This document shows positions 16,647 to 64,000 of a stretch of DNA of 64,000 nt, in pieces. Both the position numbers and the translations under genes were made by a program. Origin of the DNA: Amoebophrya sp. A120. Lineage: Eukaryota; Protista; Dinoflagellata. The stretch is from positions 6,951,794 to 7,015,793 of the forward strand of contig CAJINV010000001.1 in the NCBI GenBank assembly GCA_905178155.1. The letters run 5' to 3'. A model generated the notes under the pieces. The model was not told the DNA's origin and did not search any database. It worked only from the letters and a program-made list of their open reading frames with translations. Numbering within the stretch: position 1 is the stretch's first letter; each line of letters begins with the position of its first letter.

Positions 16647-19600
16647 TCAAAGCTCGTCGCGAATAGCGTGGTAATTCTTGCGTGAACGGCTTGCAGTGCT
16701 TCTCGTGGGTGGCAGTGATGGTGAAGATGGGCCTCTATTTTTGTCCTCGTGATTTATTGATGTAGCATTCTGTTTATTCGCGTCCTCTTTTCCGCCGTCA
16801 ACAGCTTTCCCCAGGGACTTGAATCCGCCTTCTGCTAGCATGGACCGCGAGTGTACGGATTCGAACGCCTGCGTACCGTCCGTGCCGCAGAGCTCCACGA
16901 TGCTCTCCTCGCCGCCGGGGTGGATTTTTGCATACTTGGTCAGGTCGTAGACGTCGTCGTACAGGCGCACCCAACAGTCGCTGACAGAGCCGTGCTCGGC
17001 TAACTCTTTTGCTGAGATAACACGCTTTTCTTTCAGTTTTCTCCTGTTCCGCTTGTTTCCGCCTACCGTCGACGTCGCGCTCCGCGTACTTGTTCTCCCT
17101 GCACTGTCAGTGTCTTTCACGCCTATTGCTTCCTCCAGCTGTGCTAGCAATTGGCTCGTAGTCTCCGGCGCAGGTGTCTTCATCAGCTCTGATGTCGTTA
17201 TCGTGTTTCTCTCAACATTGCTAGCTTTAGGAATTATCTGTCGCCCGACCACGCGTCCAAACACTAGGCACTCTAGTAGACTGTTCCCGCCAAGGCGGTT
17301 CTTTCCGTGCAGGCCGCCGGCGATCTCTCCGACTGCGAACAGGCCGGGTATGGGGTGTCTCGTTCCGCTTCCGGAATAATTCTCGTCTTTTTCCGCACTT
17401 TCATCCCCAAGGTCGTCCCCCACGGCTCTTGTTACCAAGGAAGACGCGGCAGAAGGAGATGCTGCTGATGATGATGACGATGTACTCACCTGCGCGCGCC
17501 CACTATGTTGACTTGCATCGGCTGCAGCTGCTTCCGTACTTCTACTATTTCTACTCACCACTCGGTGCAAGTCATCCACTTCCACTCCGCCCATGGTGTA
17601 GTGCACTACCGGAACTACTTTGCCTACGACGACCTTGTCCGTCACGTCGGGTACGTTGATGAATTTAGTTTTTCCAAACGCATCCTTCGCGTCTTTAGAA
17701 GTGCCATCTCCTGCCTGTTTTCGGTACTGCTTGATGGCTTTTCTAAACTTCGCGATCGGATATGAATGATTTTCATCGTCGTTCGTCTTCACGTTCAAGT
17801 CCACTTCTGTCAGCAGGTTTTTCCGGCTGTAGTGCTGGACGTGCCGGTCTGCGGCTTTGATCGCGTCCTTGCCGAGGAGAAGATAGAAAGGTCGGACGCC
17901 CTTCTCCTTATCCCCCTGTTTCTCCATCATGCGGTCGACGACGTACTGCCGCGTGCCCAGCTCGTCGCAGAACCGCTCGCCCGACTCGGTCAGCAGAATG
18001 CCGCCCACGCCGCGGAGCACCTCCGCAGCTAGCGTTTTCGTCGCCGCGTCCGGCTGGCTGGGATCGACAAAACCGGTGGGGTGAACCTGTGTTCATCCGT
18101 TTAGATCTGAAATAATCGAGGCACGCGAACTACATGCTCGAGGTTTATGGTCGCAATAAAAGCGTGGAACGCTTGGGTTTCAACTGCTTTGTGCTTGTTG
18201 TTGTGCACAATTCTTACCTCGCATTTTACGAAAAAGAGAGAACAAACTAAAACGAAACAGAGACAGCCGCTTGTAGAAAAAATACGCACCTGCACAAACT
18301 GCATGTCCACGAGCCTCGTTCCGGGGAGTGCGAGCACCATTTTGATCCCGTCTCCAGTCGTCCACTTTCCCAACGTCGTGGGCGTTTTTCGCAGATCCGG
18401 GCGGCTGGTGTAGAGAAGCGACCCCTTCTGGCTGTGGTCGTGTATTACAATGAAAAATGCCCCCTCCCCATATCAAAACGGAAATCTGTGATGCAGATTT
18501 GTGGTCACAAATCAGCTTTGTGATGCTAGAAGGCAAAAGATGCGGACTGTAGGGCTGCCTAGCGTGGGAAAGCCTTGCAGCTCCAGGATGACAGGAGGCA
18601 ACTGGAAGTGGGAAACAGCATGACAGATTACCTGCAATTTAGGCCGCAGCGTCGTCTCTTGGACTTCTAGCAATACAAGTCGATTTGTGTACTCAAATAC
18701 AGCATCACAAATTCGCGCATCTTCCGTTTCCGATATGGGGTGAGGGCTTTTTTCACTTTGATATCGTGCCCGAACCCGCCAGTGGCCAGGACGACGTTTT
18801 TCGCAAGGACCTTGATCGCCTGATGTGACGCGGTAGAGGGTGGTGTTTTCGACGCAGCGGAAGTAGTAGATGGTGGCCCTGCTGCCACTGTCCGTATTCC
18901 GTGCACGCCAGTCACGGTGTAGTGATTTTTGCCTTCGTGATGTTCCATCGAACTCGTGCCGCTTTGCGTCAGAAGTCCCTTTACCGTGGTGCTCGGCAGA
19001 ATCGTCAACTGACCGGTCTTCTCAAACTCGCGCAGCCTCTTTTCCAGCACCAGAATGACTTCAGTGCCGATGAAGTTCCCGGTTGCGGGTCGATACGTGC
19101 GGGGACTCGAGTGCCCCCCCAAAACCGCCTTCAGCCCTAGATCCACGCCCTGGGCCTGCAGCCACCGCAGCCCCTCGTCCGACCCCTCGACGAGCGCACG
19201 CACGCGCGACGGCACGGCGCGGCCGCCACCAGATTTCATGGTGTCGTCAAAAAATTTTTGCAGGGCCGGGTTGCAGCTGTTCAGTGGACTCTCTCGGGGA
19301 CACAGGCCACCATCCACCCAACTTTGCTCCGTTTGGTTCATGGCATTTACCGTGTTTTGCAATTCTGCGCGCAGCGCTTCGTTCCAGATTTCTCCGTTGA
19401 TCCCAGAACTCGCCTTTCCGCTGTTCCCGCCGAACCGGGGCTCTTTATCGAGTAGCACGACTCGTGCCCCGCCCTGCAAGGCAGTCAAGGACGCGGACAT
19501 CCCGGCCAAGCCCGAGCCGACGACAACGGCGTCGGCGTTCAGGACCAGTTCGCGCGTGTCCGTTTCTGAGGTCGCGCGGTGTCGGCTCAAGTCACTCTCG

Positions 19601-62200: not shown

Positions 62201-64000
62201 GTGAACAGGGTCTGGAAGCTGGCCATCGCGCGGATCAGCATGGTCGTGATCGCGTTGAAGATCCGCCTTTCCCAGTACACATAGTACTCCGCCATGGCCG
62301 GGCTCGACCCGGTTTTCGTGCCCGCGGTGGTTTCCTCGATTTTGATCAAAAAGGGTGAAATTGACTCGTACTTCTTCACCAGGTCAGCCACCTGCTGCTC
62401 GCGGAACTTCTCAAAGTACTCGTAGAACTCCTGGTGGTCCATCACTTCCTGGTCCTCCTGCTCCCAGTTGAACGGTTTCACGAGGATGGCCTTTTCGATC
62501 GCGTCCACGACGTTTTCGATCCGTTCCTGGGATTTCTCGACCTGATCCCGGACGGAGCGGAGCGTGGAGACCCCGCGGTTCCCCTCTTCGATGAAGTCCA
62601 GGATCCCCAGGGAGTTCCAGTTGAGCACCCCCAACCCGGGTTCCATGCAGGCGTCGAGCTCGCGGAGCTGACCTTTGAGGAGATTTCGCTGCACCGTGGA
62701 CATGTCGCCGACCACCTCGTCGTACGCATTCGCGAGAAGCTGGAGCTGCTCGACAAATTGCTTGTATTTCTCCTCCTGTAGCCCGACGTTGAGCACTAAT
62801 TGCGGCAACTCAAACCCGCCAAGCTGGTCCAGCATCTTCGCTTCCCGGGTGAGCAAATCTAGTTGCACGTTGAAATTGACCGCGAAGCCACCACCCTCTT
62901 TTTTGCACAAAATGTTGTTCCCGAGCGCCTCCTGCACGGTGGATACGGCTTGCTCCTCCCAATCTGCGAACAGATTCTGCTCGAACGCGAGAATGTCCTT
63001 CCCCAGATCCACGTAGTCGCGGCAAGCAACCTGCCCCTCGGGGGTTTGTAACAGCTGCGGCATCGTCTTGAAGCTGAGAACCGGCCGCTTGATGCGGGCA
63101 AAAATACTCCGCGCCCACGCGATGCTGCCCGCTAGTGGTGGCACGTCTTTCGGCGGCTTGTAGTTCACGCTCTCTTTCTCGAAGAGCTCGCGCATGCGCT
63201 TGACCTGTTGATCAATGTTTTAGCAGGAGGTCGGTTTATTTTCATCATTTACATCATTCTCAAGATCGAAAAAATAAACCGTCGTCGTGTCAAAACGCTA
63301 GTACCCTCCTTATGACCACATAAGTAAAATCCCATCAATTAATCTAGATCATAGTACCTCGCTTCCGTACTGCTTTAATATGTCCGCGAACTTCTCGCTC
63401 ATCTTCGCGTTGATCGTCTCCCGCGATTCGATGTTCTTGAAGTTCTGCAGCAGTTGAAACGCGCCTTCCGCGGACCGCAAATTCTGAAACGAAGTGTATC
63501 AAGTGTAAAAGTGTCTGGGTCTGGATACTTGTAATGCTAAAAGTGAATGATAGACGCGCCGCAATGTGCAGCTATGCATGACAAATTTTGTGGCTGCCAT
63601 GTCTTACGTATTCCGCATGGCAAACTGCCTTTTCGAACGACAGTTAAGGGGGCTCTTTCGTGCCTATGCAACACAGATTCTCGAGTCATGCCAGACAAGC
63701 ATGACAAACTTGCACTCTTCCAGACCCAGACGTTTTTGCATTTGATAAAGTGTCCAGAAAGACAATCGCCCTTCGCTCGATCACCTCCACGCGTTCGCGG
63801 AACCGCCCCATCATAGGTTCCCACACGGTCGAGTAGTTCCGCTCGTCGAAAGCGCGTCGAGCAGAGACTTTCTGAAGTTCTGCTCTCGTCAAGTCTGCCA
63901 CTTCTTTCAAGAGCTCGTCGATGTCCGCGCTGTCGCCCGTCACTTCTTTCAACTCCGGACCGAGAAATTTGTAGAACTGGTCCAGCACTTGCGTGACCTC
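44228..64000 (-). CDS. DNAH10: Axonemal dynein heavy chain, DNAH10 (inner-arm I1 alpha)-like; multi-exon, 5' end outside window
   Basis: P-loops [103 protein letters not shown]. Tail segment [19 protein letters not shown] resembles DNAH10 (subtype recognised from memory). Confidence 0.93.
46913..47191. mobile_element. TIR/TSD introner family B, 279 bp, in dynein
   Basis: TIR tatcctgagtaaaaacgtccccacaccagag vs revcomp tatcatttgtaaaaacgtccccaccccagag; TSD ttgat at 46908-46912 and 47192-47196; removal gives [13 protein letters not shown]. Confidence 0.94.
47258..47536. mobile_element. TIR/TSD introner family B, 279 bp, in dynein
   Basis: Perfect 31-bp TIR tatcctgagtaaaaacgtccccaccccagag; TSD tgtct at 47253-47257 and 47537-47541; removal gives [23 protein letters not shown]. 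Confidence 0.95.
49358..49611. mobile_element. TIR/TSD introner family A, 254 bp, in dynein
   Basis: TIR tatcaaatgcaaaaatgtctgggtctgga vs revcomp tatggattgtaaaaatgtctgggtctgga; TSD cgctt at 49353-49357 and 49612-49616; removal gives [14 protein letters not shown]. Confidence 0.93.
50062..50823 (+). repeat. Left arm of GC-rich repeats: ~324-bp unit x2, with a duplicated ~78-bp subunit
   Basis: aggcgggccgttctggttttctcgctttcagcgcgcgggg starts at ~50062 and ~50386; subunit ccatcggggctgcgtgtccacgcgccagccccgagctgtttacgcaggcacccaacgcgcaaaagtgtgggccgcata is repeated. Confidence 0.88.
51720..53040 (-). repeat. Right arm: about three diverged copies of the same unit in inverted orientation
   Basis: Reverse complement of 52842-53040 matches 50640-50823 (…gattacgtaggcgcccaacgcgcaaacgc…ttttccccagcatatcaagc); further copies near 52420-52790 and 51930-52200. 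Confidence 0.85.
56461..56676. mobile_element. TIR/TSD introner family C, 216 bp, in dynein
   Basis: TAT termini and perfect 30-bp core TIR agtgcacaactccccctccccctcatttgt; TSD cgcct at 56456-56460 and 56677-56681; removal gives [16 protein letters not shown]. Confidence 0.94.
60715..61502. repeat. Compound minisatellite within canonical dynein intron 60557-61565: 16-bp gcgaggcactacttaa, then 13-bp gcgaagcact(t/g)aa, then 13-bp gcgaaacacataa variants
   Basis: Tandem arrays seen directly. The host intron has GT at 61565 and AG at 60557 and joins [12 protein letters not shown]. Confidence 0.92.
63497..63747. mobile_element. TIR/TSD introner family A, 251 bp, in dynein
   Basis: TIR tatcaagtgtaaaagtgtctgggtctgga vs revcomp tatcaaatgcaaaaacgtctgggtctgga; TSD aagtg at 63492-63496 and 63748-63752; removal gives [16 protein letters not shown]. 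Confidence 0.94.

Follow-up and report, generated by a model that had tools for sequence, protein, structure and literature searches.

Exact removal from transcripts of transposon-like introns with 5-bp target duplications in Amoebophrya sp. A120

A 64,000-nt stretch of the genome of the dinoflagellate Amoebophrya sp. A120 (contig CAJINV010000001.1; here the window, in which all coordinates are counted) carries ten transposon-like elements within protein-coding genes. Each is bounded by terminal inverted repeats (TIRs) and an exact 5-bp target-site duplication (TSD), and is known by its start coordinate. At the four elements for which an RNA contig was available, exactly the element and one copy of its TSD were missing, at ends that do not permit a GT-AG reading. 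The elements belong to the published A120-type introner elements, which are real, functional non-canonical introns (Farhat et al., 2021; PMC7789003), as an earlier reading of the window from its sequence alone had recognized; the class, its 5-bp repeat and its non-canonical ends are already on record and the phenomenon is not new. The elements are best read as copies of non-autonomous DNA transposons that are precisely removed from transcripts, probably by a process acting on RNA that measures its cuts from the TIRs; that the spliceosome performs this removal is preferred tentatively, at somewhat less than an even chance.

All ten elements were found at the starts and with the TSDs given by the sequence-only reading (Table 1), and its statement that nine of them have TAT...ATA ends was borne out; these nine measure 150-321 bp, and the exception is the 3,654-bp element 49648-53301, which ends in TTA...TAA. 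A scan for TIRs made with no direct-repeat criterion returned 18 pairs, comprising the ten elements (TSD match 5/5) and eight others (3/5 or lower), and pairs combining TIRs with an exact 5-bp repeat numbered 11 in the window against 0 in each of 20 shuffles. The weakest TIR of the ten is that of element 42743 (16/24); element 18443 has a copy with 95.7% identity at another locus. All host genes lie on the minus strand and were identified by their Pfam domains as an ERO1/FAD-binding gene, an ERCC4-domain gene, a GFO/IDH/MocA oxidoreductase gene and a dynein heavy chain gene. Three further candidates (26228-27072, 41293-42260 and 12436-13790) were dropped for a weak TIR, an absent 5-bp repeat or a position within an open frame, and no Rfam match was obtained in positions 1-56000 of the window.

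The fate of the elements was followed by comparing sequencing runs over positions 44001-56000, a region that includes elements 46913, 47258, 49358 and 49648. One contig of run X6 (record 9; 5,412 nt, depth 35) covers 44001-45166, 45296-46907, 47537-48045, 48194-48744, 48987-49352 and 53302-54041, leaving gaps of 61 and 31 letters that correspond, by length only, to the expected short exons 47192-47252 and 49612-49642; it holds no other letters. It therefore skips all four elements, and lacks exactly the element plus one TSD in each case, including the 3,654-bp one. That run X6 is RNA is the search tool's guess, but the contig is also devoid of three GT-AG introns that run X1 retains; these canonical introns, of the ordinary kind that the sequence-only reading had noted in the same genes, serve as controls. 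Within the 3.65-kb element the depth in X6 was 0-1, compared to 35 in the flanks. With the DNA run X1, contigs pass from exon into element ends at flank depth, and dozens of different flanks surround the element ends, so that the elements are repeated through the genome. The earlier suggestion that excision might act on DNA is not supported by these contigs, which represent one DNA sample compared at the contig level and in the joints listed, where rare variants are dropped and rare empty sites could escape. Two raw-read runs of another strain contributed only 1 and 2 reads aligning to 44001-56000, all partial.

The sequence-only reading had named retention of the elements or use of nearby cryptic GT-AG sites as outcomes that would count against it, and neither was seen at the four elements. 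Together with a jump of reverse transcriptase across a hairpin between direct repeats, these outcomes make up the explanation that no special removal exists and that the genes are dead, cryptically spliced or misread. A hairpin with a short direct repeat is indeed a recognized substrate for such jumps (PMC8240250; PMC2923612), and frame-keeping cryptic GT-AG pairs occur near every element. Against this, the lengths of the X6 contig agree with the exact junctions and not with cryptic pairs, the depth inside the 3.65-kb element is close to nil, and retention of the elements would introduce stops in all frames, while the dynein exons at 44228-55590, joined across four elements and three GT-AG introns, give an undamaged frame of 2,118 codons whose only stop is at its end. 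This explanation is thus hardly credible. Removal of the element with one TSD likewise gave open frames of 1,052 codons (two elements) and 1,240 codons (one element); the earlier claim that the frame is restored every time holds for these long frames, but is weaker at 42743, 56461 and 63497, because just 80-152 codons were tested there and other frames are open too.

When the junction was slid through the TSD, GT-AG was obtained at 0/10 elements and GC-AG at one (56461), and no position ended in AG at the elements with TSDs CACGA, ATCAA and CACTT, reproducing the sliding test of the sequence-only reading in full. The 0/10 result is at chance level and unsurprising by itself, given that only approximately 4% of random exon sites allow GT-AG. 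Canonical donors in the window start with GTA.

A larger sample was assembled by an end-motif scan of metagenome contigs, which returned at least 166 stretches; 161 loci were used, 156 of them from assembly JACKZZ01. These latter loci have element families in common with the window but not exons, and their source is a close relative of Amoebophrya sp. A120, as judged from two genes with A120 orthologues at approximately 80-100% identity by exon. A library scan then provided 290 elements, nine of them from the window and most from JACKZZ01, among which the two TSD copies matched exactly in 228, at 4/5 positions in 40, at 3/5 in 12 and at fewer in 10. Strand and frame were assigned by a codon model trained on the frames of the window, and the counts below are restricted to confident assignments (176 of 252 for exact cases; 203 of 286 for orientation). 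The few matches to the pattern in viral contigs (1 and 0 in two scans) and in prokaryote genomes (14, in bacterial records and taken as chance) were set aside.

In this sample, it looks like the length of the TSD, and not its sequence, is what matters. Among 303 TIR pairs collected with no repeat criterion, an exact 5-bp repeat was present in 219, while lengths of 3, 4 and 8 bp accounted for 6, 4 and 1, respectively, and no exact 6-bp repeat was found. The sequence itself is free, with 154 distinct 5-mers in 176 cases and a composition near that of the local exon background. GT-AG was possible in 11 of the 176 coding cases, compared with 4.1% expected; a mild excess in a first subset (10/114) was not sustained in this larger set (P 0.18). 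GC-AG (3/114) and GA-AG (8/114) were possible at near-chance frequency. Neither a palindromic target preference nor a depletion of TSDs that extend the stem was found. TSD starts do fall at the third codon position above chance (79:49:48, n = 176; 27:10:5 at the strictest filter), an excess that no target preference explains.

Orientation relative to the gene appears equally free: the counts were 56:42, 16:12, 7:9, 6:4 and 7:7 for the five largest families, family size reaching up to 134 members, and 0:5 for one small family. Removal of both orientations is seen with elements 46913 and 47258, which belong to family 2, lie in opposite directions (score of 132 opposite vs. 28 same) and are both absent from the RNA contig. 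These two elements have common TIRs and could mispair; the intervening exon is still present in the contig. Adjacent elements are sometimes separated by only 13-66 bp, as at gaps 47192-47257 and 49612-49647 and in related loci.

Such data bear on the sequence-only proposal of a second excision route guided by both the TIR stem and the TSD, of which the GT-AG-free removal stands (4/4 in the RNA contig). The TSD component, as a guide by sequence, is not supported. If identity of the two copies guided removal, the exactness of 228 of 290 TSDs and the scarcity of non-synonymous mismatches would be accounted for, but the frequency of synonymous mismatches is close to neutral, TSD composition resembles exon background, identical RNA repeats are unable to pair with each other, and 4-, 6- and 7-bp repeats, which would guide equally well, are nearly absent. 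Moreover, an A120 orthologue reads through the site at which a related locus has a TSD match of 3/5. A guiding role of the TSD sequence is probably to be discounted, and is rated as very improbable.

The TIRs themselves carry a distinctive pattern of conservation. Private change amounted to 1.0% at the terminal TAT and approximately 1% at positions 11-13, compared with 10% at positions 4-8 and 7.1% inside the elements. The TIR core was predicted to be paired in 178 of 179 elements and the terminal TAT in 149, partly by construction. In the proposed process, pairing of the TIRs would bring the element ends together, recognition would depend on the terminal TAT and on the AAA box at positions 11-13, and cuts would be made at a fixed distance, 5-k nt before the element and k nt after it. 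Given the 5-bp duplication, cutting at fixed distances from the TIR marks would allow any target sequence to work. An altered U2-type spliceosome would find the paired ends and cut.

The spliceosome is slightly preferred over a non-spliceosomal route: nearly all spliceosome proteins are present in Amoebophrya, U1 small nuclear RNA was not detected there (PMC7789003), the U2 spliceosome of Fritillaria removes transposon-derived non-canonical introns (PMC13326754), and there are three weak hints for k = 4, which would place the first T of the element at intron position +2. The 5' T was changed in 0/183 elements and the last A in 5/183; the +2 register gives 45% phase-0 introns (79/176); and C is under-represented at +1 (25 vs. 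42). The GTA start of the canonical donors points, weakly, the same way. A U12-like reading of RTATCC was rejected: it suits just one family, and Amoebophrya reportedly lacks the minor spliceosome (PMC7789003).

Several observations weigh against this proposal. The +2 hints are each weak and were spotted after the fact, and neither a 3' splice signal nor a branch signal with a direction was found in any register (n = 176). The ends of element 42743 are unpaired in its minimum-energy fold. Mismatches in the TIR arms show no preference for G-U over A-C (118 vs. 114; 89 vs. 95), so that no selection on RNA pairing is visible. In favor of the 5-nt ruler, four of the 22 elements with a TSD match of 3/5 or lower have their repeat run at offset 8 instead (5+3, which keeps the frame), compared to a background of 3/228 in exact elements, and none has one at offsets 6, 7, 9 or 10; on the other side, three of these four cases score poorly as coding, and for the clearly coding case the A120 orthologue lacks the extra codon.

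The absence of a splice-site or branch consensus in any register, together with the lack of orientation bias, would suit a TIR-anchored ruler acting on RNA through a non-spliceosomal cut-and-join reaction, as proposed for the nonconventional introns of Euglena, which are released as circles. Elements in the sample and window ranging from 135 bp to 3.65 kb are treated alike, the TTA...TAA end type has the same 5-bp geometry, and Euglena, where the spacers are 3+5 and the products circular, provides a precedent (PMC12501133; PMC11282704). On the other hand, the stems lack a G-U bias, the exon start lacks a Euglena-like purine preference, and the weak hints of U at +2 suit a spliceosome. Such a reaction is a lesser, though serious, possibility.

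The strongest challenge to any fixed cut comes from the imperfect TSDs. If k is fixed, each TSD position has one intronic copy, which should be free of protein constraint. Single mismatches between the TSD copies were synonymous in 18 of 24 cases, compared with 3/24 in each shifted frame and 3, 5 and 11 in the antisense frames; with doubles included, 25 of 40 were synonymous, where at most 42% was expected. Counting against a fixed register, non-synonymous differences reached 0.44 of the expected minimum (95% interval 0.20-0.81; bootstrap P 0.004), while synonymous differences between copies occurred about as often as under neutral change. The same deficit was obtained with looser coding calls (P 0.011), and the ratio rose to 0.48-0.56 (upper bound 0.92-1.01; P 0.016 and 0.028) when cases of ambiguous offset were dropped. 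Overall, P lay at 0.003-0.03. Both copies may be able to enter the mRNA, both may be renewed through gene conversion from empty alleles, or the excess may be a small-sample effect. That the cut point is not fixed, such that either TSD copy may enter the mRNA with both under protein selection, is considered unlikely; if true, a templated or DNA-guided process would be implied, for example polymerase skipping between ends held by a transposase-derived protein, by which insertions in their thousands are erased whatever their length, orientation and target sequence, unlike any described splicing reaction.

A templated removal of this kind, with no fixed register, could involve a polymerase that skips, on DNA, from one TIR to the other while a protein holds them, or a transient reversal of integration, likewise on DNA. 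It would fit the apparent protein constraint on both TSD copies, the transposase-like pattern of conservation with no RNA wobble signal, and the near absence of element RNA in run X6. Yet the DNA contigs retain the elements at flank depth, a few contigs of the RNA run pass from exon into element at other copies, the same synonymous excess would arise if empty alleles converted the sequence as far as the element edge, and conservative filters weaken its significance to P 0.016-0.028. Amoebophrya is not known to have a separate somatic nucleus, and excision from DNA would consequently lose the elements, which counts against the DNA route. Templated removal is rated as unlikely, and fixed-distance removal from RNA continues to be the preferred reading.

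At one locus with an imperfect TSD, the A120 orthologue has the residue of the upstream copy at TSD position 2, which fits k >= 2. A second such case proved to be an 8-bp repeat, with no extra codon in the A120 orthologue, and gave no value of k; two other protein searches for orthologues gave no match, and codon preference did not reveal which TSD copy is derived. As approximately one in five elements has an imperfect TSD, the cut position should be readable in existing RNA-seq data.

Table 1. Elements, host dynein gene and control introns in the window (elements end in TAT...ATA unless stated; all spans include both TSD copies where present)
Feature	Span	Strand	TSD (sense)	Remarks
Element 18443-18763 (321 bp, TAT...ATA); TSDs 18438-18442 and 18764-18768	18438..18768	-	CACGA	ERO1/FAD-binding gene
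Element 20833-21085 (253 bp), family 1	20828..21090	-	GACCA	Same ERO1/FAD-binding gene as 18443
Element 24076-24340 (265 bp), family 1	24071..24345	-	GAAGA	ERCC4-domain gene
Element 42743-42892 (150 bp)	42738..42897	-	GCGGA	GFO/IDH/MocA oxidoreductase gene
Element 46913-47191 (279 bp), family 2	46908..47196	-	ATCAA	Dynein heavy chain gene; absent with one TSD from RNA contig
Element 47258-47536 (279 bp), family 2	47253..47541	-	AGACA	Absent with one TSD from RNA contig
Element 49358-49611 (254 bp), family 1	49353..49616	-	AAGCG	Absent with one TSD from RNA contig
Element 49648-53301 (3,654 bp, TTA...TAA, TIR 21/24)	49643..53306	-	GTCAT	Absent with one TSD from RNA contig
Element 56461-56676 (216 bp)	56456..56681	-	AGGCG	Sole element readable as GC-AG
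Element 63497-63747 (251 bp), family 1	63492..63752	-	CACTT	Dynein gene
Dynein heavy chain host gene	44228..64000	-		Ordered Pfam domains; bears six elements; continues past window edge
GT-AG intron, 129 nt, control	45169..45297	-		Dynein gene; removed in same RNA contig
GT-AG intron, 148 nt, control	48050..48197	-		Dynein gene; removed in same RNA contig
GT-AG intron, 242 nt, control	48745..48986	-		Dynein gene; removed in same RNA contig

The long element 49648 contains inverted subterminal arrays of 78-bp units in a Foldback-like arrangement (49950-53050). Its DNA depth of 70-210, compared to 47, suggests a few copies; its ends had no match among 162 loci. Longer elements with exact 5-bp repeats, which are probably nested or composite, were also seen in related loci L028 (632-1465), L057 (3862-4492), L056 (571-1051), L031 (4314-4770) and L076 (4001-5031).

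With its two elements removed, the minus-strand gene at 16650-21861 has an open frame in which an ERO1 domain is fused with an FAD-binding domain of fumarate-reductase-like type, and a further exon supplies the remainder of the FAD-binding domain and a cytochrome b5 domain. From these predicted domains, the gene likely encodes an Ero1-flavoprotein-b5 fusion, of which no report was found in a brief literature search. Elsewhere on the minus strand, 1975-15662 and 27276-39583 are free of elements and occupied by long frames of up to 2,567 codons that are poor in introns and gave no Pfam match, the frame at 29409-30860 having a 54-bp repeat; a small Ras/Rab-family GTPase gene with canonical introns lies at 39930-40910; and a GT-AG dynein intron of approximately 1 kb at 60580-61570 is packed with 13- and 16-bp tandem arrays.

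Non-canonical introns make up more than 60% of those in Amoebophrya, and how they are removed has been without an explanation since 2021. The rules that emerge from the present sample, namely a constant 5-nt geometry, a free target, both orientations, lengths of up to 3.65 kb and two end types, narrow the mechanism. Removal of any TIR-bounded insert would make exons safe for transposons and permit mass intron gain with no need of splice signals. No earlier use of imperfect TSDs or of orientation to probe removal was found in the literature, although subscription papers and figures S19-S25 of PMC7789003 may hold part of this; the text of PMC7789003 yielded no mention of orientation freedom, TSD freedom or a synonymous excess.

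The introner elements of strains A120 and A25 are described as having inverted repeats composed of TAT, approximately seven variable bases and at least three A, with 5-bp direct repeats (legend to Figure S19, PMC7789003); they have non-GT-AG ends, are removed in RNA-seq data and are mixed with canonical introns, and no transposase was found for them (PMC7789003). A supplement lists 58 A120 families (PMC12130899). Nine of the ten window elements have the TAT, variable stretch and A run, 56461 being a family variant with no full A run; all ten have a direct repeat within the 3-5 nt range, of 5 bp; all four tested are missing from transcripts with non-GT-AG ends; and genome-wide repetition is evident from the dozens of flanks and the family sizes. 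Whereas the repeats of the published elements measure 3-5 nt and their splice positions vary (PMC7789003), the length here is almost always 5. Element 49648, with its TTA...TAA ends and length above 1 kb, acts like the A120 class yet is no described A120 family member; the published analysis covered 40-1,000 bp, and this element falls outside it (PMC7789003).

As to their origin, the elements have TA..TA termini like IS3EU/GingerRoot transposons and a TSD length within the 4-5 bp of Ginger2; the TSD of IS3EU is, unlike here, usually 6 bp (PMC10045372), a length represented by no exact repeat among the 303 pairs. No transposase domain was detected in 16 frames of the long element or in 86 of the 107 long frames of related loci. 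The introners of Polarella, Symbiodinium and Aureococcus are likewise TIR transposons whose removal leaves one TSD, and some are bidirectional (bioRxiv 2020.10.14.339549; PMC9860276); those of the Polarella type carry or recruit G(T/C/A)/AG, and their TSD is thereby constrained, while the TSDs here are unconstrained and such ends occur at the low counts given above. The introns of Fritillaria borealis, in a U2-only genome, are also transposon-derived, with TIR and TSD and no GT-AG (PMC13326754; PMC11282704), but they favor AG-AC or AG-AT ends and U1 is kept, whereas no end dinucleotide is favored here in any register.

The elements also resemble the nonconventional introns of euglenids, which are similar to miniature inverted-repeat transposable elements, bounded by TIRs, devoid of GT-AG, of widely varying length and located beside spliceosomal introns (PMC12501133; PMC11282704). 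The euglenid introns have CAG...CTG ends, spacers of 3+5 and an exon that starts with a purine, compared to TAT...ATA ends, an offset of 5 in total and an exon start with no preferred base here; excised circles have been demonstrated for them (PMC12501133; PMC11282704), while the removal described here is known from assembled contigs. The total of 5 is nearly constant, although a fixed register of motif and cut is questioned by the synonymous excess. In Euglena, knock-in experiments established that fixed spacer lengths are required (PMC12501133), and cutting at a fixed distance from the TIRs in Amoebophrya may parallel this spacer rule.

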